Shown here piece after piece: positions 2,776 through 55,406 of a DNA stretch of 64,000 bases. Numbering within the stretch: the stretch's first letter is position 1; each line of letters begins with the position of its first letter. The position numbers were made by a program, and so were the translations under genes. The notes below the pieces were generated by a model that saw nothing but the letters and a program-made list of their open reading frames with translations, was not told the DNA's origin and made no database searches. Source of the DNA: Candidatus Brockarchaeota archaeon (lineage in GTDB: Archaea > Thermoproteota > EX4484-205 > JAAOZP01); the NCBI GenBank assembly GCA_017601245.1, contig JAFNJB010000053.1, positions 16,501 to 80,500 on the forward strand, given 5' to 3'.

Positions 2776-2776
2776 T

Positions 2777-7496: not shown

Positions 7497-7577
7497 TCGT
7501 GTACATTAAATCGAAAAACAATCCCAGGATAAATATTTTCTAAAGAGGAGGTTCTAAGTGTTATCTCTTATAGATTC

Positions 7578-7877
7578 CTACTCTACTCCCTTGACCCACT
7601 TTGAGAATTCTAAAGCCTTCTTTAAAATCCCCTTCTTTATAAGAGAGCAATAAACTTCTCTCCCCTTCTTAACAGTCTTTACTAATCCGGCGTTTTCAAG
7701 AATTCTAATATGGTATGAAACAGTTGGTTGGGAAAGGTTGAATTTTTCGACTATGCCCGTTATCATCATGCTTTCGCTCTCTATTATTGAGAGTATTCTC
7801 AATCGAGTCGGGTCTGCAAGGGCCTTAAACACTTTAGCTGCTTGCTTATATTCTTCATCCTCTTTTTTAACAGACAA
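7578..7877 (-). CDS. ArsR-family winged-helix transcriptional regulator
   Basis: ADPTRLRILSII...ITGIVEKFNLSQPTVSYHIRILENAGLV is a classic ArsR/SmtB HTH, in 99 aa. Confidence 0.8.
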   Translation of the reverse strand: MSVKKEDEEYKQAAKVFKALADPTRLRILSIIESESMMITGIVEKFNLSQPTVSYHIRILENAGLVKTVKKGREVYCSLIKKGILKKALEFSKWVKGVE

Positions 7878-8008
7878 CTCACTTCGTTAATAGAATTCTA
7901 GAGATTAATATATAAATCTTTTGGAGCAAGATTGATAAAGAGAAAAGCCGTTAAAAGTATTGTTTGAAAATAAAAGTCTTAAGTTAAATATATTTTCAAA
8001 TCTATTTT

Positions 8009-9445
8009 TCAACCGCGGGCGATTTCGTCTATGAGACTACCGTTATGGTCATAAAGTTGAATCCTAACCGGCATTCTTCCTATGGCATGTGTTGCACAGC
8101 TAAGGCAAGGGTCTAAGGCGCGTACGACTGCTTCGACTTTATTGAGCATTCCCTCGTTAAGCTTTTTTCCATTCACGTATTTCTTAGCAACCTGAGCTAC
8201 GGCTTTGTTAAAAGCAATATTGTTATTTACAGTTGCGATTATAAGGTTGACCCATGTTATTCTACCCTGCTCATCAACTTTATAATGGTGGAATAATGTG
8301 CCCCTTGGTGCTTCAATAACTCCCACACCCTCTCTCTTGTTGAGAGATGCTTTCGCTTGGACTTCGGTGCTTAAGATCTCAGGATCCTGAAGCAGTTCCT
8401 TAACTTTCTCTATGCAGAAAACGATTTCTATCAAGCGTGCATAGTGGTACATGAAAGTGTTTTGGACAACTCCATTCTTTCCAAGCTTCTTGAATTCTTT
8501 GAGAAGATTATCTGCCATCTCGGTTCCGCAATGTGAAGCATTATTCAGCCTTGCTAACGGGCCTACTCTATATGCACCATCGGGATAACCTACATTCTTC
8601 AAATAGGGGAACTTCATGTAAGACCAGTCTTCAACAGCCTCGCCAATATATTCGAAATATTTAGAAGGGTCTAACTGATCCGCAACAACTTTACCCTCTG
8701 GGCTTAGAATCCTTATATTACCATCATAATGTTCAAGACCACCGTCTTTCGTCACGAGACTCATATAGTAAGTCTGGAAATCGCCGAAGTCCCTCATCTC
8801 GTTTTTAAAGTTCTCCATATTCTTATTGAAGAGTTCAATACTGTTTAAAGCGATTTCAATAGCCTTAGGCACGTCCGCAAGTATCTTGTCAACACCCTCT
8901 TTGGATAATGGTGTTTTTACTCCGCCCGGCACTATCCAATCGCTCGAGTGTATCCTCCTCCCGGAGAGTGTTTCGATTATACTCTGCCCAAACTTCCTAA
9001 GCCAAACTCCCTGTTTAGCGATCTCAGGATATTTCTCAGCTAGACCAAGGATGTTTCTCTTAGATGGTTCCGAATCCAAGCCGAGAAGGAAATCTGGAGA
9101 AGATAGGTAGAAGAAGCTTAATGCATGCGACTGGATTATCTGACCCATGTGCATAAGCCTTCGGAGAAGCTCCGCAGTCCTTGGTATTTTCACTGCTAAA
9201 AGGTCGTCGCACGCCTTGGCTGAAGCGAGCAGGTGGCTTACTGGACATATGCCACATATCCTCGATGTTATCCCTGGCATTTCATAGAAGGGTCTTCCTT
9301 CACAGAACTTTTCAAATCCTCTGAAATCGGTTACGTGAAAACGTGCATCTTTAACCATTCCCTCCTCATCTAGATGTATCGTTATCTTAGCATGGCCCTC
9401 TATCCTTGTCACGGGGCTTATAATTATCTCCCTGCTCATTTCCAA
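8009..9445 (-). CDS. hoxH: [NiFe]-hydrogenase large subunit (HoxH-like, cytoplasmic group 3)
   Basis: The N-terminal RICGICPVSH (RxCGxC) and C-terminal DPCLSCATH (DPCxxCxxH) Ni-binding motifs are present. A short C-terminal tail suits protease processing. 478 aa. Confidence 0.9.
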   Translation of the reverse strand: MEMSREIIISPVTRIEGHAKITIHLDEEGMVKDARFHVTDFRGFEKFCEGRPFYEMPGITSRICGICPVSHLLASAKACDDLLAVKIPRTAELLRRLMHMGQIIQSHALSFFYLSSPDFLLGLDSEPSKRNILGLAEKYPEIAKQGVWLRKFGQSIIETLSGRRIHSSDWIVPGGVKTPLSKEGVDKILADVPKAIEIALNSIELFNKNMENFKNEMRDFGDFQTYYMSLVTKDGGLEHYDGNIRILSPEGKVVADQLDPSKYFEYIGEAVEDWSYMKFPYLKNVGYPDGAYRVGPLARLNNASHCGTEMADNLLKEFKKLGKNGVVQNTFMYHYARLIEIVFCIEKVKELLQDPEILSTEVQAKASLNKREGVGVIEAPRGTLFHHYKVDEQGRITWVNLIIATVNNNIAFNKAVAQVAKKYVNGKKLNEGMLNKVEAVVRALDPCLSCATHAIGRMPVRIQLYDHNGSLIDEIARG

Positions 9446-9451
9446 CTCCTC

Positions 9452-9997
9452 CTAACCGTATTTAAACCTCCCTTCTAAAGGTGGGACTCTTCCCTCGAGC
9501 AACTCGTTTAAAACATAGTTTATCAAATTGGCTGGTGGTGGGCAGCCTGGAATGTAGAAGTCTACTTTGACAACCTCGTTTAAAGCCAAGACTCTTTTAA
9601 GAAGCCTAGGGACATTGGTAGGAGCGTTTTGCTTAATGGTCGCGTTCTCAACATACGCCCTCTCCAAAACCTCTTCAACGCTATTGTTTAAACTGTTTCT
9701 CAACGCGGTTACATTGCCGTTTACAGCGCAGTCTCCGAGTGCTATTAGCATTTTCGTATTCTTCCTGATTTTCTTCAAAAGTTCTAATTGTTCCTCATTA
9801 CCAACCGCTCCTTCAACCAACGTTATGTCAACGTTTTCAGGAAAATCCTTAATATCTGCAATCGGACTGTAGACGAGCTCAATCTTTCCTGCGAGCTCTA
9901 ATAGTTTCTCATCTTGATCTAAGAACGACATGTGGCAGCCAGAACAGCCGCTCAACCAGACTGTTGCAAGCCTTACCTTAGCCAATTGTCTTCTCAC
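9452..9997 (-). CDS. hoxY: [NiFe]-hydrogenase small subunit (HoxY / delta-like)
   Basis: ATVWLSGCSGCHMSFLD is the proximal-cluster motif of cytoplasmic hydrogenase small subunits. 181 aa. A GTG or TTG start overlaps the upstream stop. Confidence 0.85.
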   Translation of the reverse strand: MRRQLAKVRLATVWLSGCSGCHMSFLDQDEKLLELAGKIELVYSPIADIKDFPENVDITLVEGAVGNEEQLELLKKIRKNTKMLIALGDCAVNGNVTALRNSLNNSVEEVLERAYVENATIKQNAPTNVPRLLKRVLALNEVVKVDFYIPGCPPPANLINYVLNELLEGRVPPLEGRFKYG

Positions 9998-10682
9998 TCC
10001 TCCTGCTCGTCACGAATGAGGCGAGCTCTTTCCTCTTAGATTCCGAATGCGGCTTACCCTTAACATACAATGCGCCAACTGGGCAGACAGCAGAGCATTT
10101 CCCACAGGATGTGCATGATTCAGCAAAGCCCCATTTATCGTTTAGGTCGAAAATAACCTTGGAATTCTTCCCTCTAAGCATGAGGTCTATCGTATGCACG
10201 CCTTCAATCTCATCACAAATCCTTATGCAACGCGTGCAAAGTATGCATCTATTTGGATCGTAGGCGAACCTCTCATGTGTAAGGTCTAATTCATAATTGG
10301 TCCACTCTCTTTCAACCCTGAGGTGGTCAACTCCAAGATCGGTTGCGAGCTGCTGGAGTTCACAACTTCCGTTGGCTACGCAGACCGAGCAGACATGGGG
10401 TCTTTCCGATAGTAGTAACTCTACAGCCCACTTCCGATAGCGCTTAAGCCTTTCCGAATTTGTAATAATCTCCATCCCCTCCGCAACTGGCGTCACGCAG
10501 GATGCGAATACTCTTGGCGAGCCCTTTATCTCAACGAGGCAGACCCTACATCCTCCGAATGATGAAACCCCTTCGAGATAGCATAATGCTGGGATGTATA
10601 TGTTGTTTTCCCTAGCAACCTTAAGTATGGTATCGCCTTCTTTAGCAGTAACCTTCTTACCATCTATAGTGAGCTCTATCAT
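9978..10682 (-). CDS. hoxU: NuoG/HoxU-like iron-sulfur diaphorase subunit
   Basis: The N-terminal 2Fe-2S ferredoxin-like region (IELTIDGKKV...CYLEGVSSFGGCRVCLVEI) and 4Fe-4S CxxCxxC motifs are present. The likely start is the ATG at 10680-10682 (MIELTIDG), 2 nt after the hoxF stop. The ORF-track start at 10760 is probably too far upstream. Confidence 0.8.
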   Translation of the reverse strand: MIELTIDGKKVTAKEGDTILKVARENNIYIPALCYLEGVSSFGGCRVCLVEIKGSPRVFASCVTPVAEGMEIITNSERLKRYRKWAVELLLSERPHVCSVCVANGSCELQQLATDLGVDHLRVEREWTNYELDLTHERFAYDPNRCILCTRCIRICDEIEGVHTIDLMLRGKNSKVIFDLNDKWGFAESCTSCGKCSAVCPVGALYVKGKPHSESKRKELASFVTSRRSEKTIG

Positions 10683-10683
10683 T

Positions 10684-12336
10684 TTACTCGCCTCCCACAC
10701 CTCCGCCATTCTTAAAACACTTTCCCGCACTACACTTTTTCTCAAGGATGTGTGCAACATACTCGTCTCTGAAATACCTTAGCGTAGTAAGAGTTGGATT
10801 GGGCGCTGTCTGACCAAGGCCGCATAAACTAGCCTCCTTAATGAATTCGCAGAGCTCTTCAACTTTCTGAAGGTCTTCCAAAGACCCTTCTCCTCGCGTA
10901 AAGCCGTCTAGAATCTTATAGAGTTTGTAAAGCCCTACTCTACACGGTACACATTTTCCACAGGACTCGTCTACACAGAATTCCGTGAAGAACTTAGCCG
11001 TATCCACCATGCAGGAAGTATCGTCTAGAACAACTATACCCCCGGAGCCCATTATCGCACCGGCCTTAGTTAGAGACTCGTAGTCTATTGGAAGATCCAA
11101 CAGCTGTTCTGGTAAGAAGCCTCCAGATGGCCCACCAACCTGGACTGCCTTAAAACGCCTACCGGGTGGAACTCCTCCTCCTATCTCGAAAACAACTTCT
11201 CTAAGCGTTATGCCCATCGGGACTTCGATTAACCCCGGATTGTTAACCTTCCCGGTTAAGGAAAAGCATTTGGTGCCAGTGCAGTTTTTAGCTCCTATGC
11301 TTGCAAACCATTCACTGCCCTTAAGTAATATGACTGGAATATTTGCGAGTGTTTCAACATTGTTTATCAGCGTTGGCTTACCCCATAGGCCTGATTGCGC
11401 TGGGTAAGGTGGTCTAGGCCTAGGCATTGCCCTACGCCCCTCGATTGAAGCGAGTATTGCCGTCTCCTCACCTGCTACGAATGCCCCCGCTCCCAGCCTC
11501 AGCTCGATGTCGAAGCTGAATGCTGTTTCGAAAATCTTCTCTCCCAATAATCCCATTGACCTTGCTGCTTCAATAGCTTTCTTCAAAGTCTCAACAGCTA
11601 GCGGGTATTCGCTACGCACGTAGATGTAGCCCTTACTCGCACCCACAGCATATGCGGCTATGGCCATTCCTTCTATTATTGCATGCGGATCTGCCTCCGC
11701 CAGGGTACGGTTTGCAAAAACACCCGGATCACCCTCGTCAAGGTTAGCTATTACGTATTTCGGAGAACCCGTTGCCCTTGCAACGTATCTCCATTTAAGC
11801 CCTGTTAGAAATCCTGCTCCCCCTCTCCCCTTTAACCCGCTTAAAGCAACTTCTTCTATAACCCCTTCGGGAGTCATCCTCGTTAAGGCTTTTAGAAGAG
11901 CGTAATATCCTCCCACAGCAATATAATCCTCTATTCTCAAGGGATCTATCTTACCAGCGTTTCTCAAAACTATTCTAAGCTGCTTCTTAAAATACGCCTC
12001 GTTGCCGTACAACATGCTTTTAACAGGCCTGCCGTTAACGATATGCTCTTTAACAATCTCCTTAGCCCTATCTGGAGTAACGTTCTGATATAGATAGTCG
12101 CCTGGCTCTATTAAGACCGCAGGGGCTATTGAACATGTTCCTATGCAGCCTGTTCTGGCTACGTAACACTCTCCTTCAACTCCAAACTCCTTTACAGCAT
12201 CCTTGAACGCGCTCAATACTTTAAGTGCTCCGAATGGCATGCAACCGCTTGAACAGCAGACGTTTATCCTGTACCTGTAGGATTTGCGTGCTTCAGCCTC
12301 TTTTTGGGCTAGGCTACGTAATTCATCAGGCTTCAA
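10684..12336 (-). CDS. hoxF: NuoF/HoxF-like NAD(P)H-binding FMN iron-sulfur diaphorase subunit
   Basis: 550 aa with an N-terminal thioredoxin-like 2Fe-2S domain, a GGAGF glycine-rich NADH site, FMN-site residues, and the C-terminal 4Fe-4S motif ESCGKCVPCR. Confidence 0.85.
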   Translation of the reverse strand: MKPDELRSLAQKEAEARKSYRYRINVCCSSGCMPFGALKVLSAFKDAVKEFGVEGECYVARTGCIGTCSIAPAVLIEPGDYLYQNVTPDRAKEIVKEHIVNGRPVKSMLYGNEAYFKKQLRIVLRNAGKIDPLRIEDYIAVGGYYALLKALTRMTPEGVIEEVALSGLKGRGGAGFLTGLKWRYVARATGSPKYVIANLDEGDPGVFANRTLAEADPHAIIEGMAIAAYAVGASKGYIYVRSEYPLAVETLKKAIEAARSMGLLGEKIFETAFSFDIELRLGAGAFVAGEETAILASIEGRRAMPRPRPPYPAQSGLWGKPTLINNVETLANIPVILLKGSEWFASIGAKNCTGTKCFSLTGKVNNPGLIEVPMGITLREVVFEIGGGVPPGRRFKAVQVGGPSGGFLPEQLLDLPIDYESLTKAGAIMGSGGIVVLDDTSCMVDTAKFFTEFCVDESCGKCVPCRVGLYKLYKILDGFTRGEGSLEDLQKVEELCEFIKEASLCGLGQTAPNPTLTTLRYFRDEYVAHILEKKCSAGKCFKNGGGVGGE

Positions 12337-12842
12337 TCCTTCTCAGCCTCCATAATGGCTCTAATCTTCTTCAAAACAACTTCCGGCGTGGCTTTTCCAA
12401 TAGTTTCTCCGTCTACAATGGCGTTAGGAGCCATTGCACACGCCCCTATGCACCTGGTTACGAAAAGAGAAAGCTTCCCATCCGCGGTTGTCCCGCCTCT
12501 CTTAACGTTAAACTCTCTCTCTACTGCTAAAACGAGGTCTTCAGCACCCTTAACGTAACACGCTGTGCCCATGCATACTGTGACAACATGCGTACCCGGC
12601 TTTTTCAACTTGAAAAGATTGTAAAACGTTGCTACTCCATAAACATGGCTTGGCGGTAACCTTAGAAGCTTAGAAATATGGATCAAGAGGTCCCTGTCTA
12701 AATAACCGTAGAGTTCTTGAGCTGTATGGAGTACTTCAAGTAGAGCATCCTTCCTATACTGGTACTTCCTAATAGCTGCTTCAAGAAGCATTAAACGCCT
12801 GTCTGCCTTTAAACCGGCCTGTTGAGCTCCAGCATCAGGCAT
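12333..12842 (-). CDS. hoxE: NuoE/HoxE-like thioredoxin-fold 2Fe-2S subunit
   Basis: 169 aa with CMGTACYVKGA...CIGACAMAP, the NuoE 2Fe-2S cysteine pattern. A 4-nt overlap with hoxF follows. Confidence 0.85.
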   Translation of the reverse strand: MPDAGAQQAGLKADRRLMLLEAAIRKYQYRKDALLEVLHTAQELYGYLDRDLLIHISKLLRLPPSHVYGVATFYNLFKLKKPGTHVVTVCMGTACYVKGAEDLVLAVEREFNVKRGGTTADGKLSLFVTRCIGACAMAPNAIVDGETIGKATPEVVLKKIRAIMEAEKD

Positions 12843-12998
12843 TTCACAGCCCTCAGTTTCAATGATTAACTATATTTAAGAATTTGCTTTTCCGCGTTTT
12901 ATAAACTGAGATTCTGCTTACTATAGTACAGTGTTAAAGCTCTCTCCTCATCCACAAAAGGTTTATAAAAAGATGGAAACGAGCCATCGGGTTAGAAA
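12843..12998. promoter_or_regulatory. divergent promoter region between hoxE (minus) and hydB (plus), with TATA-like boxes
   Basis: A TTTATAAAAA box lies about 30 nt upstream of the hydB ATG (~12962-12971). TTAACTATATTTAAG (12867-12880; on the minus strand, CTTAAATATAGTTAA) lies about 30 nt upstream of the hoxE start. A further TTTTATAAA sits at ~12897-12905. Confidence 0.5.
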
Positions 12999-14027
12999 AT
13001 GGCTTTTGTGCTGAAGAAGGAGGAACTTCCCCACTTCTCTAAGCACATAATCTCCAAGGAATATGGTCTTTTCGCACCCGTTAGGAAAGAGGCTCGAAGC
13101 ATATTCAAAAGAATAGACGAGAATCAGGTTGGCGAGGTTTCTCTAGATTACATTAGGACTATCATGCCTCCTCTTAAAAGTCTCCTAATTCCTCCTAAAG
13201 AGACACTTCTGAAGATTAAAGACGGAAAGATCGAAGAAATGCTTCCGGGTCCTGAGAATAAGACTGCGATACTGGGTGTTCATCCATGTGATGTAAACGC
13301 AATGAATCTCTTGGAGAGAGTATATATGGATCGTCCCAAAGACCCCTATTTCGAAGCCAGGAGGAAGAACCTTATAATAATAGCTTTGAACTGTAGTAGT
13401 GCTGACGAGAAATGTTTCTGCACGTCATTTGGAACAGGCCCTTCTCTAGAAGAGGGCTTCGACCTAATACTTACCGACTTGGGCGATAGGTTTCTGGTTG
13501 AAGTAGGGTCGAGGAAGGGTTCAGAACTAATAGGAGACTTCTACATGCCAAAGGCTTCGAGCACAGACCTTATGGAAAAGGATGAAACAATAAGGAGGGT
13601 AAAAGGAATGATAAGGAGACATGTTAATACAGCTGGGCTCCAAAGGATAATGACCGGGGCGCTTTACAATCCTATTTGGAATGAGCTTGCAGATAGATGC
13701 ACGGGTTGCGGTGCCTGCAACATGGTTTGTCCAACGTGCTTCTGCTTCAACGTTATCGACGAGCCCGAGCTGGATTCAGGTAGCGTTTTAAGATCAAGGA
13801 CATGGGACGGTTGCCTCCTTTGGGAATACGCTGAAGTAGCATTGGGCGGGAACTTTAGAAAAGACCTCTCAGCTAGGATAAGGCAATTCGTAAACCATAA
13901 GATGAATTATTGGCTTAACCAGTATGGCGCATTGGGATGCGTAGGTTGCGGTAGATGCATAGAACAGTGTCCAGCGAAGATAGATATTACCAGTATAGTT
14001 GCTAGATTGAGAGGTGAGCTATTATGA
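12999..14027 (+). CDS. hydB: sulfhydrogenase beta subunit (HydB-like 4Fe-4S protein)
   Basis: Two ferredoxin-type motifs (CTGCGACNMVCPTC and CVGCGRCIEQCP). It is the first gene of a four-gene operon with 4-nt overlaps. Confidence 0.8.
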   Translation: MAFVLKKEELPHFSKHIISKEYGLFAPVRKEARSIFKRIDENQVGEVSLDYIRTIMPPLKSLLIPPKETLLKIKDGKIEEMLPGPENKTAILGVHPCDVNAMNLLERVYMDRPKDPYFEARRKNLIIIALNCSSADEKCFCTSFGTGPSLEEGFDLILTDLGDRFLVEVGSRKGSELIGDFYMPKASSTDLMEKDETIRRVKGMIRRHVNTAGLQRIMTGALYNPIWNELADRCTGCGACNMVCPTCFCFNVIDEPELDSGSVLRSRTWDGCLLWEYAEVALGGNFRKDLSARIRQFVNHKMNYWLNQYGALGCVGCGRCIEQCPAKIDITSIVARLRGELL

Positions 14028-14863
14028 GTAATGAATCTGAAAACCCGTATCTACCCGCCTTCGCGAAAGTAGTGGAGATTAGAGATGAGAATTCTACGAC
14101 TAAGACTTTTAAACTAAGGATGTTAAACAATAAAGCATTGAGGTTTAGACCTGGGCAATTCGACATAATATCTTACTTCGGCGTCGGAGAATCGGCATTC
14201 TCAATCTCCTCAAGCCCTGAGGAGAAGGATGTTTTCGAAAACACCATTAGGAAGGTTGGCAGAGTAACTACTGCGCTCTTTAACGTGAAGCCCGGTGACA
14301 TACTTGGAGTCAGAGGGCCATACGGCAAGCCTTGGCCTCTTGAAAGAGTGATGGGGAGCGACCTTATAATAATAGCTGGAGGAATGGGGCTGGCCCCTTT
14401 GAGACCAGTAATACACTATATTGCTAAACATAGGGATCTCTACGGTTCTGTCGACATTCTTTACGGGGCGAGGACTCCGGGAGACATGATATTCACTTAT
14501 GAGTTTGATTCTTGGAGGAATATTCCAAATACTCGTCTTTACCTGACTGTCGACTATGTTCCACCGAATACGAAGTGGGAGTATGATGTTGGTGTTGTAA
14601 CCGAGCTTTTGAAATATGTTAAACCGAGGATGCGTGATACTAACGTTTTTGTCTGCGGTCCAGAGGTCATGATGAAGTTCACTGCTCAATTGCTACTTAG
14701 AATGGGCTTCTACCCTTCAGAGATATTCCTCTCTTTAGAAAGGAGAATGAAATGTGGAATAGGGAAATGTGGACATTGTCAAATAGGATACAAGTATGTT
14801 TGCAAGGATGGTCCAGTATTCAATCTAGAGGAGATAGGGCTTCTCCCAGATGTTATTGAGTGA
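14024..14863 (+). CDS. hydG: sulfhydrogenase gamma subunit (HydG-like; ferredoxin-NADP reductase/PyrK-like with a C-terminal 2Fe-2S)
   Basis: An FAD/NAD-binding FNR-like fold (RFRPGQFDII, GGMGLAPL) plus a C-terminal CGIGKCGHCQ...C cluster motif, in 279 aa. Confidence 0.8.
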   Translation: MSNESENPYLPAFAKVVEIRDENSTTKTFKLRMLNNKALRFRPGQFDIISYFGVGESAFSISSSPEEKDVFENTIRKVGRVTTALFNVKPGDILGVRGPYGKPWPLERVMGSDLIIIAGGMGLAPLRPVIHYIAKHRDLYGSVDILYGARTPGDMIFTYEFDSWRNIPNTRLYLTVDYVPPNTKWEYDVGVVTELLKYVKPRMRDTNVFVCGPEVMMKFTAQLLLRMGFYPSEIFLSLERRMKCGIGKCGHCQIGYKYVCKDGPVFNLEEIGLLPDVIE

Positions 14864-14871
14864 GGTGTTGA

Positions 14872-15627
14872 ATGATGAATGGTAAATTGAAGGTCGGTGT
14901 ATTTAAACTCGCATCGTGTTCAGGTTGCCAAATGGTCTTAGTTCATCTAGAGGAAAGCCTATTAGAAGTATTGAAATACGTTGAATTAAAATATTTCAGA
15001 ATGGTTAGTGACGATGATCTTCCAAATGAACCCTTAGATGTGGCTATTGTTGAAGGAGCAGTAACTAATGAGGAGGAGGGGATTATGATTAAGAAGATAA
15101 GGAAAATGTCTAGGTTTCTTATTGCAGCAGGCGCATGCGCAGCCACAGGAGGATTGAATGCCATTAAGAACACCACTCCGGAGGGTGAAGTAGAGAGTAC
15201 AGTTTATTCCTCTCCTGAATACATAAGGTCTGGGAAAGCATTCGGCTTAAACGAATATGTTAACGTCGATGCATACTTATACGGCTGTCCAATAGATGGG
15301 AGGGAGTTGATCAATACGTTGATGTCGCTCGCCATACGCGTCCCACCCTACATACCTGGCATCACAGTCTGTATGGAGTGTAAGATGAACGGTAACGAAT
15401 GCATATTCCTAACAAGAGGAGAGCCGTGCCTCGGACCTGTTACGGTAGGAGGTTGTAATGCACTATGTCCTTCAAATGGTGTAACATGCGAAGGCTGTAG
15501 AGGTGTCTTGAAAGGGACTAATCCCAAGGGCTTGGAACTGGCTTGGACTAATGCGGGTGTTAGCCCAGATTTAATACGTTTAAAGCTGAGAAAATATAGT
15601 GATGTCTACAAGCTTTTGACGAGGTGA
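14872..15627 (+). CDS. hydD: [NiFe]-hydrogenase small subunit (HydD / delta-like)
   Basis: VGVFKLASCSGCQM is the proximal Fe-S motif. 251 aa with additional Cys motifs for the medial and distal clusters. Confidence 0.85.
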   Translation: MMNGKLKVGVFKLASCSGCQMVLVHLEESLLEVLKYVELKYFRMVSDDDLPNEPLDVAIVEGAVTNEEEGIMIKKIRKMSRFLIAAGACAATGGLNAIKNTTPEGEVESTVYSSPEYIRSGKAFGLNEYVNVDAYLYGCPIDGRELINTLMSLAIRVPPYIPGITVCMECKMNGNECIFLTRGEPCLGPVTVGGCNALCPSNGVTCEGCRGVLKGTNPKGLELAWTNAGVSPDLIRLKLRKYSDVYKLLTR

Positions 15628-16919
15628 TTAATATGGTTGATAGGACAATAGTTTATGATTACATAAGCAGGGTTGAGGGACAGGGATCTCTGGAAGTTAC
15701 CATTTCAAACGGTGAAGTAAAGGATGCAAAACTCCAGATATTTGAAGCTCCAAGGTTTTTCGAAGCTTTTCTAAGAGGTAGGAGGGCTCTTGAACTTCCC
15801 GAGTTGACTTCAAGAATATGTGGCATATGCCCAATTGCGCACGCCATAACGGCGGCTAAGGCTGTAGAAAATGCTCTCGAAATATCATTGGATGAGAGGA
15901 CTGTAGCATTAAGGAAGGCGCTAGCCCTATCGGGGATGATGCAGAGTCATGCTCTTCACATATACTTCCTTGCAGCACCAGACTACCTCGGCTATCCGAG
16001 TGCGATCGCAGCCTCTAAAGATTTATTGGATGTTGTGAAAAGAGGATTCAGGCTAAAGAGAATAGCAAACATGGTTTCTGAATATATAGGTGGAAGAGTA
16101 GTACACCCCGTCACGCTTACCGTAGGAGGCTTTACGAGGAGTCCGCCTGCTGAAAAACTTGACGAGATTATTAAAGCCTTAGATTCTTCTCTTCAAGATG
16201 CTTTTGAAACAATTTCTCTCGTTTCAAACTTCAAATATCCAGAATTCGAATCAGACCATATTAATATTGCGCTTTCAAACAAAGGAGAGTATGCTGTAAC
16301 CGAGGGGGTTGCTAAAACAAGCTCTGGGGAATATTTCGATGGTAGAGATTACAGGAAGTATGTGAATGAAGAGCAAGTTCCATATTCAAATACTAAAAGG
16401 TCGATTTTTCGCGGAGGAAGCTCCTTTGAAGTAGGTCCTGTTGCGCGCTTTAACCTCAACTATGACTTCTTATGCGACACAGCTAAGGAGGCTGCTGAGA
16501 AATCCGGCGTAAGGCCTCCTCTTAAAAACCCGTTTAAATCCACAATAATAAGGGCAATAGAGATAATTCAGGCAATAGAGGAGATGAAGAGCATACTTAA
16601 AGAGGGTGTAAACGTTCCTCCCCCCCAGAAACCAAAGCTCCGTCAAGGTATGGGGGCTGCTTTAACGGAGGCTCCTCGAGGGCTCTTGTATCACTCTTAT
16701 ATCCTGGACAAGGAGGGTAGGGTTTCAAAGGCGGACATAGTGACTCCGACTGCTCACAATTCTTGGAGAATAGAGAGGGACGTTTACGAACTAGTTCCTT
16801 CAATAGCTCACTTAGATGACAATTCCCTCAGAAGCCTCCTAGGCATGCTTGTAAGGTCCTACGACCCCTGCATCTCCTGCTCTGTCCACGCTTTCACTGT
16901 AAGGCTCATAAGGGAGTAG
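15624..16919 (+). CDS. hydA: [NiFe]-hydrogenase large subunit (HydA / alpha-like, group 3b-type)
   Basis: RICGICPIAH near the N terminus and DPCISCSVHA at the C terminus. 431 aa. Confidence 0.9.
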   Translation: MINMVDRTIVYDYISRVEGQGSLEVTISNGEVKDAKLQIFEAPRFFEAFLRGRRALELPELTSRICGICPIAHAITAAKAVENALEISLDERTVALRKALALSGMMQSHALHIYFLAAPDYLGYPSAIAASKDLLDVVKRGFRLKRIANMVSEYIGGRVVHPVTLTVGGFTRSPPAEKLDEIIKALDSSLQDAFETISLVSNFKYPEFESDHINIALSNKGEYAVTEGVAKTSSGEYFDGRDYRKYVNEEQVPYSNTKRSIFRGGSSFEVGPVARFNLNYDFLCDTAKEAAEKSGVRPPLKNPFKSTIIRAIEIIQAIEEMKSILKEGVNVPPPQKPKLRQGMGAALTEAPRGLLYHSYILDKEGRVSKADIVTPTAHNSWRIERDVYELVPSIAHLDDNSLRSLLGMLVRSYDPCISCSVHAFTVRLIRE

Positions 16920-17462
16920 ATAATCCTGTTCAATCGCAACGTCTTTTAAAACCCCTGAGTTTATCACAGCCTCAAGTATGGCTTTAACAACTCCATTAAC
17001 TGCCTTGAGACACTCGCCTGAAACTTTTTCGCCTAAATCGAATTTCTCAACGCCTATTCCGAGAATTTTTATATCCGTCTCTAAGGGTTTTCCAAAAGCC
17101 TCTAAGAGTAACGGAATAGGTATATCGTGCGTAGAGGCGGGTACGTAAGAATCCAGGTCTGTTGGATCTAGAATTGCCAACCTCTCTCCATTGGGGAAGG
17201 CGTCTACGATTAGAAGATGCGAGGGGTTCTTCTCAAAAGCGTAATCGATACATGAGTCGATTGAAGCCCCACATTCAATAGCTTCAAATTTTTCACTGTT
17301 GAAAGGCTTCAAGGCTCTGGCTACGAGTAGGCCAGCAGCATCATCGCTTCTCAACTCATTACCAATGCCTAAAATTATGAAAAGCCTTGCACCAATCAAC
17401 CATTTTTTTAGAAAACTCTGTAATTCTTCAATCGAACAGTAATACACGTCCGTTTTTAACAT
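16839..17462 (-). CDS. hydrogenase maturation endopeptidase (HycI/HybD family)
   Basis: ILGIGNELRSDDAAG matches the GxGNxxxxDDGxG protease motif. The ORF carries about 20 extra N-terminal aa, so the true start is uncertain. Its 3' end overlaps the hydA 3' end convergently by 81 nt. Confidence 0.75.
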   Translation of the reverse strand: MLKTDVYYCSIEELQSFLKKWLIGARLFIILGIGNELRSDDAAGLLVARALKPFNSEKFEAIECGASIDSCIDYAFEKNPSHLLIVDAFPNGERLAILDPTDLDSYVPASTHDIPIPLLLEAFGKPLETDIKILGIGVEKFDLGEKVSGECLKAVNGVVKAILEAVINSGVLKDVAIEQDYLLPYEPYSESVDRAGDAGVVGPYKHA

Positions 17463-49707: not shown

Positions 49708-51984
49708 ATGTCCAACCAGAAATCTGAAGAAGTAGTTGCCTACAGGATTAACGTAAACGGTATAGTGCAGGGCGTCGGATACAGGCCGTTCGTATACCGT
49801 ATAGCTACTGAACTCGGTTTAAACGGGTTTGTTCTTAACTCTGGGAATGGTGTTATAATCGAGGTTGAGGGCAAGCTTGACGATTGTTTAAAATTCATAG
49901 AGAGGCTTAGGACGGAGAAGCCGCCGAGAGCGATTGTTAAAAACCTGGTTTATGAAAGAATTCCCTTAAAGGGTTATGGTGAATTCAAAGTAGAGAAGAC
50001 TGTTAATGGGGAAGTGGAAACCCTTTGCCCACCCGATGTAGCGGTATGCCAAGACTGTTTAAACGAGCTTTTTAACCAAGTTGACAGGAGGTATCTGTAC
50101 CCCTTCATAAACTGTATAAACTGTGGCCCGCGTTTTACAATATTAGAGAAACTACCCTATGACAGGGTTAATACAAGCATGAAATCTTTCGAAATGTGCG
50201 GAGAATGTGTAAGGGAGTATTCCGATCCGTTGGATAGGAGGTTTAAGGCTGAGCCGAATGCATGTAGATCATGTGGCCCTAGTGTTAAGCTATATGGTAG
50301 AGACGGGTTGTTGAGAGTGTCAAACCCTATTTCGGAGGCTGCGAGACTGATAAACGAGGGCTTCATAGTTGCGGTTAAGGGCTACGGTGGATTCCACTTA
50401 GCTTGCGATGCAACCAATAGAGATGTCGTGTTAGAATTGAGAAGGAGGAAGAAGAGAGGCAATAAGCCCTTTGCAATCATGGTTAAGAATATTGAAGAGG
50501 CTGAGAGTATAGTCGAGCTCAGCGATTCTGAGAAAAAATGGCTTCTACACTATTCTGCTCCGATAATTCTCGCGAAGAAGAGAGTGCCCAATCCGGTTGT
50601 GGAAGAAGTCGCCCCCGGCATGAAGTATCTGGGCGTTTTCCTACCTTATACTCCAATACACCATATTCTCATGAGGGGGGTTAAGCCTTCTGCAATAGTC
50701 TTAACGAGCGGAAACGTTTCAGAGGAGCCGATAATCTTTAGGGATGAAGAAGCTTTTGAAAAACTTGGGAATATAGCGGATTACATATTGACGTATAACC
50801 GTAGGATAGTTAACTTTGCAGACGATTCCGTTGGGTTTGTACAAGACGATTCGTTAAGGCTAGTTAGGAGGAGCAGGGGTTTCGTACCGGAGCCTGTTGA
50901 AGTCGAATTGAATATTGACGGTGTCTTAGCAATGGGTGCTGACTTGAATAATACTTTTGCAATAGCGAAAAGGGGCAGGGTATTCCTCAGTCAGTACATG
51001 GGTGATTTGGAAAACATTTTCATCAGGAGAAGATACGTTGAGACCGTAAAGAGTTTAAAGCGGCTTCTCAATCTAGATTACAAGACCATTGCCTATGATC
51101 TGCATCCCGGATACTATTCTTCACAGATAGGGTTATCGCTGAAGGGCAATAAGATTCCCATACAGCATCACTATGCTCATATTCTTTCAGCAATGGCTGA
51201 AAACAAGATTCTAAACCAGGATGTTTTAGGCATAGCTTTCGACGGTACGGGATATGGGGATGATGGAAACCTGTGGGGCTCAGAATTCATAGTAGTCAGA
51301 AATGGGGAGTATTTCAGGAGGGGGCATTTGAAATATGTTCCAATGCCAGGTGGTGAAAAAGCGATTGTAGAACCCGTTAGGATGGCTTTCAGCTATTTAT
51401 ACGATGCGATGGGGGAAGATGCGTTGAAAATCGATATTGGAATAGGAGATAGGATAAAGACGTTTTTGAAAAAGATGATTGAAAAAGGGATCAACGTGCC
51501 GAGGACCTGCGGCTTAGGTAGATTATTCGACGCCGTATCAGCACTATTAGGAGTGTGTTTAAAGAGGACTTTTGAAGGAGAACCTGCTATTATGCTTGAA
51601 ATGGTTGCTTCCGACGGTATTGAGGAGAGCTATCCCTTCAGCATAGTTGGGGGGAGAGAATACATTGTGGATACTGCGCCAATAATACTTTCAATAATCG
51701 AAGATTTGAAGAAGAACGTTCCGGCGAGTAAGATAAGCACGCGGTTCCACGAGACTATTGTAAGGCTTACAGTTGAACTTGCTGAGACGATAAGGCTTGA
51801 AGAGGAAGTTAAGAACATTGTTTTAAGCGGGGGCGTTTTCCAAAACAGGATAATCTCGTCCAGGATTAAGAGGGCTATGGAGGAACGTGGCTTAAGAGTC
51901 TTCTGCAATAACTTAATACCTACCAACGATGGTGGAATATCTCTTGGACAGGCCGTAGCCACGGGTTTTAAGACGGGTGGTTGA
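49708..51984 (+). CDS. hypF: [NiFe]-hydrogenase maturation carbamoyltransferase HypF
   Basis: Acylphosphatase-like N-terminus (YRINVNGIVQGVGYRPFV), two CxxC zinc-finger pairs, a YrdC-like region, and a Kae1-like C-terminus. 758 aa. Confidence 0.9.
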   Translation: MSNQKSEEVVAYRINVNGIVQGVGYRPFVYRIATELGLNGFVLNSGNGVIIEVEGKLDDCLKFIERLRTEKPPRAIVKNLVYERIPLKGYGEFKVEKTVNGEVETLCPPDVAVCQDCLNELFNQVDRRYLYPFINCINCGPRFTILEKLPYDRVNTSMKSFEMCGECVREYSDPLDRRFKAEPNACRSCGPSVKLYGRDGLLRVSNPISEAARLINEGFIVAVKGYGGFHLACDATNRDVVLELRRRKKRGNKPFAIMVKNIEEAESIVELSDSEKKWLLHYSAPIILAKKRVPNPVVEEVAPGMKYLGVFLPYTPIHHILMRGVKPSAIVLTSGNVSEEPIIFRDEEAFEKLGNIADYILTYNRRIVNFADDSVGFVQDDSLRLVRRSRGFVPEPVEVELNIDGVLAMGADLNNTFAIAKRGRVFLSQYMGDLENIFIRRRYVETVKSLKRLLNLDYKTIAYDLHPGYYSSQIGLSLKGNKIPIQHHYAHILSAMAENKILNQDVLGIAFDGTGYGDDGNLWGSEFIVVRNGEYFRRGHLKYVPMPGGEKAIVEPVRMAFSYLYDAMGEDALKIDIGIGDRIKTFLKKMIEKGINVPRTCGLGRLFDAVSALLGVCLKRTFEGEPAIMLEMVASDGIEESYPFSIVGGREYIVDTAPIILSIIEDLKKNVPASKISTRFHETIVRLTVELAETIRLEEEVKNIVLSGGVFQNRIISSRIKRAMEERGLRVFCNNLIPTNDGGISLGQAVATGFKTGG

Positions 51985-52201
51985 TATGTGCCTCGGCATA
52001 CCCGGTAGAGTCGAGGAAGTAAAAGGTGATGAAGCAATAGTGTCTTTCGGAGGTGCTCGTAGAAGTGTGAGGCTGGATCTTGTCGACAATGTTTCAGTAG
52101 GAGACTACGTTATCGTCCATGCGGGGTTTGCCATACAAGTCTTAGACCAGGAGGCCGCTCTGGAAATGTTGGAGATGCTAAGGGAGATGTTTAGAGAATG
52201 A
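51977..52201 (+). CDS. hypC: hydrogenase maturation factor HypC
   Basis: N-terminal MCLGIPGRV (the MC[LI][GA][LVI]P motif). 74 aa. Confidence 0.85.
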   Translation: MVDMCLGIPGRVEEVKGDEAIVSFGGARRSVRLDLVDNVSVGDYVIVHAGFAIQVLDQEAALEMLEMLREMFRE

Positions 52202-53295
52202 GGTTCATACACGAGTATAGGGATAGGGAACTGGTTGTTAGAATAGCTGAAAAAGCTAATGAGTTTTTGGAAAGCCTTGGGAGAGAAGTCAAGATAATGG
52301 AGGTTTGTGGAACACACACAATGGCTGTTGCAAGACATGGTTTAAAAGCCCTTTTCAAAGATAGTCTCGACCTTATCTCTGGTCCAGGCTGTCCCATATG
52401 TGTTACACCGGACTCCGGCTTCTCGATGGTTTTTCAAGCAGCTGAAAAAGGCAAGGCCGTATTGGTTTTCGGGGATATGATGAGGGTCCCGTTGAACGGT
52501 AGGAGCCTGTTGAGCCTCAAAGGCGAGGGGCTCGACGTGAGAGTCATCTACTCTCCTTACGATGCTCTTAAAATAGCTGAGAGAGAACCCGGAAAAGAAT
52601 TCGTCATGGCTGGGATAGGTTTCGAAACCACTTCACCCCTCTTCGCCTCAACCATACTCCAATGCGTGAACAGAGGCATTAGAAACCTTAGGCTAATAAG
52701 CCTTTTCAAACTGATACCGCCGGCTTTAAACAAGCTCCTGGAGGCAGATGATCTTGAGATAGATGGTATGATCCTCCCAGGACATGTAAGCACGATAATA
52801 GGTATTAAACCGTACGTTGAGCTCGTTGAGAAACACAGTATCCCAGCCGTTATAGCCGGCTTCGAACCCGTTGACATCGTGGAGGCAATTTACATGATAT
52901 TGAAGCAACTAGTTGAAAACAGGAGAGAAGTCGAGAACGAGTATTCTAGGACGGTTAGGTATGAGGGGAATGTTAAGGCAATAAGAATCATGAGGGAGGT
53001 CTTTAAACCGGTTGACTCCGAATGGCGTGGCCTAGGTTTAATAGGGGAGAGCGGCCTAGCCTTAAGGAAAGAGTATGCTTATTTCGACGCTGTCGAAGAA
53101 TATGGTCTGAAACCAGTTGAAACGGTTAAGCCCAAGGGATGCTTATGCGGAGAAGTCGTCAGGGGAAGCAAGAAGCCTTTTGAGTGCAGCCTCTATAAGA
53201 AAGTATGTAGACCTGATAATCCTGTAGGTCCATGCATGGTTTCATCGGAAGGTACTTGTGCAGCTTATTTCTATGCTGATTCTGGAAACGAGTAG
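52198..53295 (+). CDS. hypD: hydrogenase maturation factor HypD
   Basis: CGTHT, GPGCPICV and C-terminal Cys motifs. 365 aa. Confidence 0.9.
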   Translation: MRFIHEYRDRELVVRIAEKANEFLESLGREVKIMEVCGTHTMAVARHGLKALFKDSLDLISGPGCPICVTPDSGFSMVFQAAEKGKAVLVFGDMMRVPLNGRSLLSLKGEGLDVRVIYSPYDALKIAEREPGKEFVMAGIGFETTSPLFASTILQCVNRGIRNLRLISLFKLIPPALNKLLEADDLEIDGMILPGHVSTIIGIKPYVELVEKHSIPAVIAGFEPVDIVEAIYMILKQLVENRREVENEYSRTVRYEGNVKAIRIMREVFKPVDSEWRGLGLIGESGLALRKEYAYFDAVEEYGLKPVETVKPKGCLCGEVVRGSKKPFECSLYKKVCRPDNPVGPCMVSSEGTCAAYFYADSGNE

Positions 53296-53331
53296 CTCGC
53301 AACGCTTTGAAAGAACGGCTTATTAAGAACA

Positions 53332-54228
53332 GTGTACTTCAAAATCGATTCGATGAAGATGGACAGTGGTTATTTAACAGCAAGCGATGGTGTAAAACTA
53401 TTCTACCAATACTGGTTGCCTGAGAAAGTTGAAAGGATACTCGTATGTATACATGGTGCTTCCAGCCACTCTGGAGAATTCGCCTACTTGGGGAATTACT
53501 TATCGTCTAAAGACGTGTTAACTTTCACCCTAGACCTGAGGTCCAATGGGCGTTCCGGAGGTGAAAGGGGAGATATCGAAGACATTAGAATTCAATTAAA
53601 CGACATAGATGAAATGGTTAATCAACTCAAGGATGAATGGCGAAAACCAATTTACATGCTAGGCCACAGTTTAGGAGCTTCGTATGCTCTATGGTATGGT
53701 TCTGAATATTATGAAAAGTTAGCTGGACTAGTACTGGTTGCTCCAGCCATAAGGCTTAAGACGGGTTTACTGGGCATTCCTGCACCACTATCCGATCTTT
53801 GGAAGTTTCCCTTATACAGCGTTTTCATGCCAAGTAAAAAGTGGGATGTTTCAAGAGGTTGGCCGCAGCGTTTTAGAGAAAGCGAAGATGGCAAGTGTAT
53901 TCTCAACGATGAGAATTGCGTGAAAGAATTTACATTCCGCTACTTAATCAACCTGAGTAAAGTAGGGGGGAGAGCGTGTTTAAAACTCGCTTCTAAAGTA
54001 AATATTCCAACTCTAATTCTTCAAGGAGTTGACGATGAGCTTGTCGAACCGAGGGGGGCTGAAGAGCTTTATGAAAAACTAATCGCCCAAGTTAAGGAAT
54101 TGAGGATTTTTGAAGGGGCTGACCATTGCTTCCACGGATTGTTCTCCCTCAGGCCTTCAATGGGAGAGTTTGAACAAGAAAAGCAGCAAATATGTCAAAC
54201 CATTTATGATTGGTTGACTAGGTTTTAA
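53332..54228 (+). CDS. alpha/beta-hydrolase (lysophospholipase/monoacylglycerol-lipase-like)
   Basis: HGASSHSGEF, nucleophile elbow GHSLGAS, and C-terminal GADH. 298 aa. Confidence 0.75.
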   Translation: MYFKIDSMKMDSGYLTASDGVKLFYQYWLPEKVERILVCIHGASSHSGEFAYLGNYLSSKDVLTFTLDLRSNGRSGGERGDIEDIRIQLNDIDEMVNQLKDEWRKPIYMLGHSLGASYALWYGSEYYEKLAGLVLVAPAIRLKTGLLGIPAPLSDLWKFPLYSVFMPSKKWDVSRGWPQRFRESEDGKCILNDENCVKEFTFRYLINLSKVGGRACLKLASKVNIPTLILQGVDDELVEPRGAEELYEKLIAQVKELRIFEGADHCFHGLFSLRPSMGEFEQEKQQICQTIYDWLTRF

Positions 54229-54404
54229 AACTAAGGCCTATTTGCGATTTTAACTCCGGAAAGATAATTTCTACAAGACAATTATTCTATTTTTTAGACA
54301 AATATTCAACGAGTTGTAATAGATGGATCTGCTAGAAAAAGCTTAATTTCTAATTAAGAGTTGAAATCTCAAACAAGGAATAGTCCTATGAGGGTTGAGA
54401 GAAA

Positions 54405-55406
54405 TTGAATGGGAGGATAGTCTTAGAACATGGTGCCGGCGGGAGGCTAATGCACGAGTTAATTAAGGAAATATCTACTAGGATAAATGTTGCAAGCAGA
54501 GGGGTTGACAAAGCTGTTTTCAGAACGCCTAATGGCAAGATCGCTTTCACAACGGATTCGTTCGTAATGAAGCCTCCTGTGATAAAGGGTTGTGACATAG
54601 GCATGCTCTCGGTAAACGGGACTGTTAACGACCTCGTCACAATGGGGGCTAAGCCGGAATATTTGAGCCTCTCACTGATAATAGAGGAAGGCTTGGAGAG
54701 AGATTTCTTAATGAGAATAATAGAAAGCATTAGAGAAGCATCTGAAAAAGCGAGAGTAAAAATAGTAACTGGAGATATTAAGGTCGTTGAGAAGGGTGGT
54801 TGCGATAAGATTTTCATAAATACTTCTGGAATCGGTAAAGTCTACCGTGGAGTTGTATCCTCAACGTTAAACGCTAAGCCTGGAGATGTTATCATAGTTA
54901 CCGGTAGTATCGGCGACCATGGTGCAGCAGTATTAGCTGCAAGAGGCGAGTTTCAGTTTGAAGTAGATGTTTCCAGCGATTGTGCTCCTTTAACAAGCGT
55001 TCTTGAAACGCTTGTTAAGAAAAAAGTGATTTTTCACACGTTGATAGACCCTACTAGGGGTGGCTTAGCCACTTCTCTCAACGAGGTTGCCGAATCCTCT
55101 AGGGTTGCAATAGAGGTTGAGGAAGAGTCCATTCCCGTGAAAGAAGAGGTTCAAGGTTTTTGCGAAGTGCTCGGCATAGAGCCTTTTTACCTAGGCTGTG
55201 AAGGTAGGCTTGTAATATTCACTCCAGAGGACTATGCAGATAGGGCAGTCAGGTCTTTGAAGAATCTTGAAGTCAGTAGAGACGCGTGTGTAATAGGAAG
55301 AGTCTTGGGCAAGTCTAAGAAGGGAGAAGTTAAGATTAAGACGAGGTCTGGCGGATTGAGGAGCCTGCCAATGCTTCAGGGAATACCTCTTCCAAGGATA
55401 TGTTGA
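54405..55406 (+). CDS. hypE: hydrogenase maturation factor HypE
   Basis: AIR-synthase-related fold with a C-terminal PRIC motif. 333 aa. Confidence 0.9.
   Translation: MNGRIVLEHGAGGRLMHELIKEISTRINVASRGVDKAVFRTPNGKIAFTTDSFVMKPPVIKGCDIGMLSVNGTVNDLVTMGAKPEYLSLSLIIEEGLERDFLMRIIESIREASEKARVKIVTGDIKVVEKGGCDKIFINTSGIGKVYRGVVSSTLNAKPGDVIIVTGSIGDHGAAVLAARGEFQFEVDVSSDCAPLTSVLETLVKKKVIFHTLIDPTRGGLATSLNEVAESSRVAIEVEEESIPVKEEVQGFCEVLGIEPFYLGCEGRLVIFTPEDYADRAVRSLKNLEVSRDACVIGRVLGKSKKGEVKIKTRSGGLRSLPMLQGIPLPRIC

Follow-up and report, generated by a model that had tools for sequence, protein, structure and literature searches.

What does an archaeon do with a hydrogenase that is best known from cyanobacteria and purple sulfur bacteria, and how did the enzyme come to stand beside a second hydrogenase? 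The question is raised by a 64-kb window of DNA (64,000 nucleotides of contig JAFNJB010000053.1, from a Candidatus Brockarchaeota archaeon), in which two [NiFe]-hydrogenase operons lie head-to-head, a minus-strand operon with the gene order hoxE-F-U-Y-H and a plus-strand operon of the sulfhydrogenase type. An initial annotation of this DNA had suggested that the hox operon, unexpected in an archaeon, may be an import beside a native enzyme. The open reading frames (ORFs) all stand where that annotation had placed them, with strong Pfam and NCBIfam matches, and its assignment of the two operons to group 3d and to a four-subunit group 3b enzyme, respectively, holds; the idea of a recent import does not. 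The hox operon is an old, established component of Thermoproteota-related archaea, and we regard the account given below of what the locus is, how it is built and where it stands in evolution as highly probable, the ferredoxin coupling excepted.

Judging from its sequence, the minus-strand enzyme is a group 3d HoxEFUYH hydrogenase. A scan of one genome per species, from which the best 80 homologous loci were kept, gave 73 bacterial loci, with HoxH 55–63% identical to that of the window, and 7 archaeal loci (62–91%), the latter from Nitrososphaerota, Thermoproteota, Crenarchaeota and Bathyarchaeia. The bacterial loci include those of Thiocapsa, Lamprocystis, Nostoc and Crocosphaera and of many Acidobacteriota, Chloroflexota and Verrucomicrobiota; the identity holds over the full length of HoxH, and the order hoxE-F-U-Y-H is kept almost everywhere among the 80 loci. 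The large subunit has a precomputed match to Pfam PF27537 (“HoxH”), carries both invariant Ni-binding motifs, RICGIC (C64, C67) and DPCLSC (C447, C450), ends in an extension of 25 residues after His453, and falls within the 3d diversity in a neighbor-joining (NJ) tree. HoxY has 4 cysteines, enough for a proximal [4Fe-4S] cluster only, against 12 in the small subunit (delta) of the 3b enzyme, and its 181 residues compare with the 179–189 residues of the small subunits in structures 7T2R and 5XF9 (best match 7T2R_E, 179 residues). The NCBIfam scores of the diaphorase subunits straddle their cutoffs: HoxU passes its equivalog model at 334.6 bits (cutoff 333), and HoxE falls marginally short at 220.4 bits (cutoff 224), which is a point against the assignment. 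For hot-spring Brockarchaeota, an assignment to group 3d by HydDB is given by De Anda et al. 2021 (PMC8065059).

The initial annotation had itself pointed to another possibility, namely that the large subunit belongs to an archaeal group 3c enzyme of the Mvh/Vhu type and that its partners were misassigned. VhuA is indeed the best NCBIfam match of HoxH (438 bits), and MvhA (5ODC) scores 422 bits, but the VhuA cutoff is 800 and NCBIfam gave no HoxH-specific family for this protein. HoxY, moreover, is much shorter than MvhG/VhuG (about 290–310 residues), mvhD and hdr genes are missing within 10 kb, and the operon that encodes HoxE, HoxF and HoxU also encodes the large subunit, which shares 55–63% of its residues with bacterial HoxH and matches PF27537. 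We consider a group 3c enzyme practically out of the question here. The HoxEFUYH systems of cyanobacteria and purple sulfur bacteria (Synechocystis PCC 6803, Thiocapsa roseopersicina), by comparison, have the same five genes in the same order with the same domain set, including HoxE, the N-terminal [2Fe-2S] domain of HoxF, a truncated HoxY and a short HoxU, and the HoxH proteins of Thiocapsa, Nostoc and Crocosphaera are 56–59% identical to that of the window. Unlike those systems, the window has no hoxW adjoining the hox genes, and the host is an anaerobic, fermentative archaeon and not a phototroph.

Could this genome have gained the hox operon from bacteria recently, at a site beside a 3b operon that was native to it? 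In favor of such an event, group 3d is mostly bacterial, as the 73 bacterial loci among the best 80 illustrate. The phylogenies, however, show archaeal HoxH as one clade among bacterial 3d sequences (99/100 bootstraps, NJ) and archaeal HoxF as one clade as well (100/100), both with deep internal divergence (62–100% identity). Among the top 120 homologs of each protein (HoxH 66–100% identical, HoxF 72–100%), every named one is archaeal, from Brockarchaeota, Thermoproteota, Crenarchaeota, Bathyarchaeia or Nitrososphaeria. In GC content, third-position GC content and synonymous codon usage, the five hox genes do not depart from the spread shown by 38 other genes of the window (|z| ≤ 1.73), so that none of these three measures gives a compositional sign of transfer. 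Relatives with HoxH 80–91% identical to that of the window show the same layout, and HoxF carries 15 substitutions fixed in the archaeal clade. A recent acquisition is thus very improbable. Given the archaeal clades and the host-like composition, any inter-domain transfer must be old and not an event in this genome; the operon reached the archaea by old inter-domain transfer or by old shared inheritance. How far the history can be read is restricted by the deeper nodes of the HoxF tree, which are weak (57/100, NJ), so that the direction of any such transfer is not established.

The DNA itself is archaeal. The window encodes the archaeal markers Nre, a CLP1-type kinase and PAC2, and Rfam and tRNA scans found no rRNA or tRNA genes in it. 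Database proteins 100% identical to HoxH and to the 3b large subunit (alpha) are named Thermoproteota archaeon, and one identical to HoxF is named Candidatus Brockarchaeota archaeon; close relatives are metagenome-assembled genomes (MAGs) from Chinese hot springs, such as JZ-2 and SKYB. Both groups of enzymes have been reported before. De Anda et al. 2021 gives HydDB-classified 3b and 3d hydrogenases for hot-spring Brockarchaeota and lists hoxH in several MAGs, and Loh et al. 2021 (PMC7886697) gives hoxEFUYH clusters in Bathyarchaeia; a Bathyarchaeota MAG from Polar Fox Lagoon also has a 3d enzyme (PMC9534799). The hox genes of the window share with these reports the archaeal clade, the gene order and the 3b plus 3d content, and the Brockarchaeota of De Anda et al. 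are most likely the same lineage as the window. The 3b plus 3d gene content is thus already published for the lineage, and the locus adds to it only the head-to-head arrangement, which matters little as stated.

By the same kind of comparison, the plus-strand enzyme is a group 3b hydrogenase, distant and lineage-specific, and not an ortholog-level match to sulfhydrogenases I and II (SHI and SHII) of Pyrococcus. Its subunits match the NCBIfam models for sulfhydrogenase beta, gamma, delta and alpha with E-values of 1e-53 to 1e-81; the beta subunit reaches 1.3e-73 with ShyB and 1.8e-59 with HydB, both under the equivalog cutoffs, and the gamma subunit 1.9e-71 with hydrogenase gamma. The 12 cysteines of delta are enough for three Fe-S clusters, and alpha has the Ni-binding motifs RICGIC and DPCISC and a C-terminal extension of 9 residues. 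The gene order (beta-gamma-delta-alpha) and the domains are those of sulfhydrogenase I/II of P. furiosus and T. kodakarensis (9NEZ, 5YXY), and alpha has its best structural matches in the alpha subunit of P. furiosus sulfhydrogenase I (9NEZ_D), with which it gives a full-length alignment of about 255 bits, and in the cytosolic hydrogenase of T. kodakarensis (5YXY). Homologs 61–100% identical occur only in this lineage, and outside it identity reaches 50% at most. By analogy, the enzyme would link H2 to NADP(H) through its gamma subunit, which contains flavin adenine dinucleotide (FAD). Against this stands the distance to the characterized enzymes, as the subunits score 180–272 bits where the Pyrococcus equivalog cutoffs are 460–880 (e.g. 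272 against 880), so that NADPH specificity can be proposed by analogy only.

The nature of the electron coupling in the Hox enzyme depends largely on HoxF. This protein consists of an N-terminal thioredoxin-like [2Fe-2S] domain (residues 20–97), a Nuo51 flavin mononucleotide (FMN) domain, an SLBB domain and an N3-type [4Fe-4S] site. A residue-level alignment to 7T2R_B (696 bits) shows that the FMN/NAD loops, the GEET and GGPSG motifs and the Phe at the F282 position are kept, which disposes of a doubt in the initial annotation that the diaphorase genes might lack the residues that bind FMN and NAD. All five ligands of the “B2 or Zn-hinge” site are also present (C442, T480, H529, C535 and C540), a site that has been modelled as a penta-coordinate [2Fe-2S] cluster (Feng 2022) and as a Zn hinge (Furlan 2022). 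Among 120 HoxF homologs from the database, 119 have the CxHCC motif of this site and 118 the cysteines of the N-terminal [2Fe-2S] domain. HoxF ends 10 residues past C540, compared with 61 further residues in HydB, which form a 2x[4Fe-4S] domain, and the C-terminal tails of the archaeal homologs measure 0–13 residues in 120 of 120 cases.

Archaeal HoxF is also set apart by a signature in the flavin region, which in the window reads DPGVFANR (residues 203–210) and GAGAFVAG (282–289). The pattern DPGV(F/Y)ANR / GAGAF(V/I)AG is found in all 131 archaeal-clade HoxF proteins, made up of the window, 6 of 6 archaeal genome loci, 4 of 4 further contigs and 120 of 120 database homologs; the position of the motif AFM reads VFA in 130 of these and VYA in one. 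Bacterial HoxF/HydB of matching architecture among the compared loci read DPGA(F/Y)MDR / GAGA(F/Y)VCG, with the exception of the protein of L047 (EPGTFKDR) and of three fusion proteins of about 1,048 residues (DPGAYMNR). The combination of VFANR, FVAG, CTHCC and a short tail is unique to the archaeal type among 150 family representatives clustered at 50%. A CTHCC-type site is also kept in Acidobacteriota-type HoxF, and the named cyanobacterial and Chromatiaceae HoxF are without it, so that window HoxF differs from the latter both in keeping the Cys/Thr/His/Cys/Cys ligands and in having VFANR/FVAG instead of AFMDR/FVCG. Of the 15 archaea-fixed differences at positions strongly conserved in bacteria, 5 fall in the FMN/NAD loops (P = 0.003 against all positions, P = 0.07 against conserved positions), which is suggestive of a concentration of archaea-specific substitutions there. 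Residues 197, 288, 352 and 357 show a correlated change, in which two cysteines conserved at 98–100% in bacterial HoxF/HydB are Ala in all archaeal proteins and new cysteines are fixed at 352 and 357. The signature together with the retained hinge site is a modest variant feature, undescribed as far as we found; the accessible text of Loh et al. 2021 and of De Anda et al. 2021 mentions neither the divergent 3b–3d layout nor the signature in HoxF nor the retention of the Cys3His site. Separately, in three Acidobacteriota genomes (L058, L078 and L079; about 5.0–8.7 kb) HoxF is fused to a C-terminal extension of about 480 residues, giving proteins of 1,046–1,048 residues with CTHCC kept, and similar long forms occur among the family representatives (P0246 and P0265; 1,034 and 1,055 residues).

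From the conserved FMN/NAD loops and the analogy with Synechocystis Hox, we infer that the Hox enzyme is NAD(H)-linked. Does ferredoxin take part as well? The Synechocystis HoxEFUYH enzyme is described as bifurcating/confurcating, its H2 production needing NADH together with reduced ferredoxin and NADPH being inactive (preprint 10.64898/2026.06.25.734504). In the window enzyme, the Ni-Fe site of HoxH would be where H2 is split or formed, and electrons would pass by way of HoxY, with its one cluster, and the Fe-S chain in HoxU to the FMN of HoxF, where NAD(H) would bind; HoxE and the N-terminal [2Fe-2S] domain of HoxF would form a side branch, which is the ferredoxin link in the cyanobacterial homolog. 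Following the Synechocystis precedent, the enzyme may use NAD(H) and ferredoxin together, in a confurcating or bifurcating manner, a reading to which we give somewhat less than even odds. Several observations weigh against this reading. AFM, an F282-type Phe and GGPSG are the motifs by which bifurcating enzymes have been told from non-bifurcating ones (Losey 2020; Feng 2022); the Phe and GGPSG are present in window HoxF, and AFM has become VFA, in which Ala at the Met position is a non-bifurcating state according to Losey 2020 and Val fits neither class. The ferredoxin domain (B3/B4), which Schut 2022 describes as invariant in Bfu enzymes, is absent from HoxF. Finally, the Cys3His site is kept in archaeal and not in cyanobacterial HoxF, which makes extrapolation from Synechocystis uncertain.

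The same observations would fit a plain diaphorase hydrogenase of the classical 3d type that reacts with NAD(H) only, with neither bifurcation nor a ferredoxin reaction, as the Ala in place of the Met of AFM and the missing ferredoxin domain would both lead one to expect, enzymes without B2–B5 being counted as non-bifurcating by Schut 2022. However, the window has HoxE, the N-terminal [2Fe-2S] domain of HoxF, the Phe at the F282 position, GGPSG and the Cys3His/B2 site, so that of the features listed for Bfu enzymes the B2/Zn-hinge site, the B5 [2Fe-2S] site of BfuB and the C1 [2Fe-2S] site of BfuC are found in HoxF and HoxE; and the Synechocystis enzyme, which is likewise without a ferredoxin domain, reportedly needs both NADH and ferredoxin. 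In our view, an enzyme restricted to NAD(H) is only a little less probable than the joint use of NAD(H) and ferredoxin, and neither reading reaches even odds.

At the other extreme, the Hox complex could be a strict member of the Bfu family, of the NiFe-HydABCSL type. The closest solved structures of HoxH, HoxF, HoxU and HoxY are chains of the electron-bifurcating Acetomicrobium mobile NiFe-HydABCSL complex 7T2R (562, 696, 209 and 168 bits), which score above the non-bifurcating Hydrogenophilus enzyme 5XF9, itself a neighbor of HoxH, HoxU and HoxY; the best structural matches of HoxE are HydC/NuoE-type chains. HoxF also shares with the A. mobile complex (7T2R/7T30) the B1, B2 and B5 ligand sets, the F282-type Phe and GGPSG. 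Yet it lacks the 2x[4Fe-4S] domain of HydB, V and A stand in the places of A202 and M204 so that AFM is not conserved, and HoxU, with 234 residues, corresponds to the N-terminal ~210 residues only of the 692-residue HydA. The 7T2R match partly reflects the fact that the structure set searched contained no cyanobacterial Hox structure, and among the loci compared true HydB-type proteins (597 residues) occur only in L067 and L075. Membership inferred from the best structural hit was accordingly rejected for want of a ferredoxin domain and a long HydA, and we hold a strict Bfu enzyme to be most unlikely; the absent ferredoxin domain and the short HoxU are the architecture of cyanobacterial HoxEFUYH. 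The two loci just named, from Thermotogaceae and Bipolaricaulota, combine HoxU/Y/H-like genes with a 597-residue HydB that includes the ferredoxin domain and with extra HydC/HydB copies, and look like bifurcating clusters of the NiFe-HydABCSL type. Among bacterial proteins, the closest to archaeal HoxF are the HydB proteins of these two loci (60–61%).

Several members of the archaeal clade have a 3b operon beside hoxE. The divergent layout, with the protease and the ArsR gene, is kept in L002, L003 and L086 (HoxH 80–91% identical), so that the shared-promoter architecture is a feature of the relatives too. In two loci of the Bathyarchaeia lineage (L005 and L088), a divergent 3b operon with a fused beta-gamma subunit adjoins hoxE, with alpha only 38% identical to that of the window where HoxH is about 70% identical. 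Bacterial cases exist as well: in L008 (Acidobacteriota; 1760–11422), a co-directional nine-gene cluster runs from 3b beta-gamma-delta-alpha directly into hoxEFUYH, and in L042 (Hydrogenedentota) a 3b alpha gene lies directly upstream of hoxE. No adjacent 3b operon is found at the archaeal loci L004, L006, L007, L087 and L089. Given the non-orthologous 3b operons of L005 and L088, the bacterial cases and the unpaired archaeal loci, the pairing seems to have arisen more than once, and its recurrence hints at a functional link, though not a universal one, between an NAD(H)/ferredoxin-coupled and an NADP(H)-coupled enzyme. In L088, hoxH is followed (10599–16071) by nadA, a NikR-like regulator, LarE/LarC/LarB-type nickel-pincer cofactor genes and a CbiM transporter, a nickel-related neighborhood that is absent from the window.

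Taken together, both enzymes are expected to be soluble, cytoplasmic, reversible [NiFe]-hydrogenases, divergently transcribed from the intergenic region, which in a fermentative anaerobe could act as a redox valve linking H2 to the NAD(H), ferredoxin and NADP(H) pools; the nucleotide specificities would follow those of Synechocystis Hox and Pyrococcus SHI. A more far-reaching proposal, which we put forward as a speculation that is rather unlikely to hold in full, is that archaeal HoxEFUYH (Brockarchaeota, Bathyarchaeia and Nitrososphaeria) is a distinct 3d subtype, defined by a remodelled flavin/NAD pocket with VFANR/FVAG and the loss of two conserved cysteines, and by a Cys3His site kept without a ferredoxin domain, and placed architecturally between Bfu-type NiFe-HydABCSL and cyanobacterial Hox. 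It would be confurcating (NADH plus reduced ferredoxin giving H2), would play the role of [FeFe]-HydABC in fermentative bacteria, and would stand repeatedly beside NADP(H)-linked 3b enzymes because the two act as a couple, keeping the pools of NADH, ferredoxin and NADPH in balance via H2. If abundant sediment and hot-spring archaea do have a confurcating Hox enzyme, then models of fermentative H2 production would change, as these now treat 3d enzymes as a simple NAD(P)H-linked valve. In work from 2022 to 2026, the flavin pocket of HoxF/HydB and the nearby metal sites have been central to the debate on single-FMN bifurcation. The archaeal HoxF clade offers a natural set of variants (AFM to VFA, two pocket cysteines lost, a hinge without a ferredoxin domain) with which the features that are needed could be tested.

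The region between the two operons was described in the initial annotation as 156 bp long with TATA-like boxes facing both ways, and this description is borne out. TTTATAA (12962–12968, plus strand) is the TATA-like box for the 3b operon and TTAAATA (minus strand, about 12873–12879) that for hoxE; both are kept in L002, L003 and L086. In an alignment of the window with these three relatives, the sole invariant blocks of the four intergenic regions are TTTTATAAA before the 3b operon and AATTCTTAAATA before hoxE. Each start codon lies about 31–37 nt from its TATA-like box, from which short leaders can be expected. Two other candidates were dropped: a possible operator GATGG-N7-CCATC (a 5-bp inverted repeat at 12972–12988, between the 3b TATA box and the ATG) is not conserved in the three relatives, and a second TATA-like box, TTTATAAAA (minus strand, 12897–12905), is not conserved in L003 or L086. 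A run of N with duplicated flanks at 6090–6183 of L002, inside the 3b beta gene, is an assembly gap, and it made the intergenic region there look falsely long.

The ArsR regulator after hoxH and the HycI-family maturation protease beside the 3b alpha gene, both reported in the initial annotation, are present. The protease gene is convergent to the alpha gene, the 3′ ends overlapping by 81 nt (16839–16919), and stands beside the 3b operon in L002 and L086 as well. The L086 protease has 172 residues and no overlap with alpha, so that the final ~35 codons of the window gene may be nonfunctional read-through. This HycI-type gene is the only maturation protease gene found in the window, with no second, hoxW-like one; being adjacent, it would mature at least one large subunit, the candidates being HoxH, with its 25-residue extension, and 3b alpha, with 9 residues. 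The ArsR gene has the orientation of hoxH and lies downstream of it, 131 bp away. Homologs stand downstream of hoxH in L001 (3133–3429, 97% identical, where HoxH is 84% identical) and in L002 (11556–11855, 90%, with HoxH at 80%), ArsR being the better conserved of the two proteins in both loci, and one is present in L086. The protein has a single Cys, hence no paired-cysteine metal-sensing motif, and is a plausible candidate regulator. Maturation genes of the hyp type form a cluster (49708..55406) 33 kb from the hydrogenase operons, with an alpha/beta hydrolase gene between hypD and hypE.

Table 1. Features of the two-operon locus and associated genes in the window (aa, amino acids)
Feature	Coordinates	Strand	Size and matches
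ArsR/SmtB-family winged-helix regulator	7578..7877	-	99 aa; Pfam HTH_5 and HTH_20 (precomputed)
hoxH, [NiFe] large subunit	8009..9445	-	476 aa from ATG at 9439; NiFeSe_Hases 3.3e-33
hoxY, truncated small subunit	9452..9997	-	181 aa (177 aa from TTG at 9985); Pfam Oxidored_q6 3.2e-30
hoxU, NuoG N-terminal-like Fe-S subunit	9978..10682	-	234 aa from ATG at 10682, after the hoxF stop
hoxF, NuoF/HydB-like FMN/NAD(H) subunit	10684..12336	-	550 aa; Pfam Complex1_51K 1.9e-44, NADH_4Fe-4S 2.1e-32, N-terminal 2Fe-2S domain
hoxE, NuoE-like [2Fe-2S] subunit	12333..12842	-	169 aa, 4 Cys; Pfam 2Fe-2S_thioredx 8.5e-44
Divergent intergenic region	12843..12998	.	156 bp; A/T-rich TATA-like boxes facing both ways
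3b beta (HydB/ShyB, AsrA-like Fe-S protein)	12999..14027	+	342 aa; Pfam Fer4_22 3.2e-31
3b gamma (FAD / NAD(P)-binding / [2Fe-2S])	14024..14863	+	279 aa; NAD_binding_1, FAD_binding_6, DHODB_Fe-S_bind
3b delta (small subunit)	14872..15627	+	251 aa; NCBIfam ShyD/HydD 5e-53
3b alpha (large subunit)	15624..16919	+	428 aa from ATG at 15633; NCBIfam HydA/ShyA 8e-81
[NiFe] maturation endopeptidase (HycI/HybD family)	16839..17462	-	207 aa; TIGR00072 73.2 bits (cutoff 47.45)
hypF	49708..51984	+	Pfam
hypC	51977..52201	+	from ORF
hypD	52198..53295	+	Pfam
hypE-like (AIR-synthase-fold)	54405..55406	+	Pfam

The locus is found on 23 independently assembled public contigs, which excludes an assembly artefact, and the layout is identical in the five shown. 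The gene junctions differ in part from what had been annotated, as 4-nt overlaps are present at hoxE/hoxF (TTGA) and at 3b beta/gamma (hydB/hydG, ATGA), and the others are short spacers or overlaps of different length. A 1-nt spacer separates hoxF and hoxU, whose ORF is open upstream to 10760 and which public contigs call as 234 or 243 residues. Depending on the start chosen, hoxU and hoxY overlap by 8 or 20 nt and the spacer between hoxY and hoxH is 6 or 12 nt. The spacer between hydG and hydD is 8 nt, and hydD and hydA either overlap by 4 nt (GTG start) or are 5 nt apart (ATG start, the 428-residue database form).

Elsewhere in the window, two large co-directional ORFs without a Pfam match (452 and 411 residues) are followed by a KaiC/RadA-like ATPase gene and an inositol-1-phosphate synthase gene (40833–44280). 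There are two separate phosphofructokinase-family (PF00365) genes in the 64 kb, at 32786–33814 (minus strand) and 48610–49602 (plus strand), and the window also encodes phosphoglycerate kinase (24931–26142) and an AMP-forming acetyl-CoA synthetase (26656–28692).

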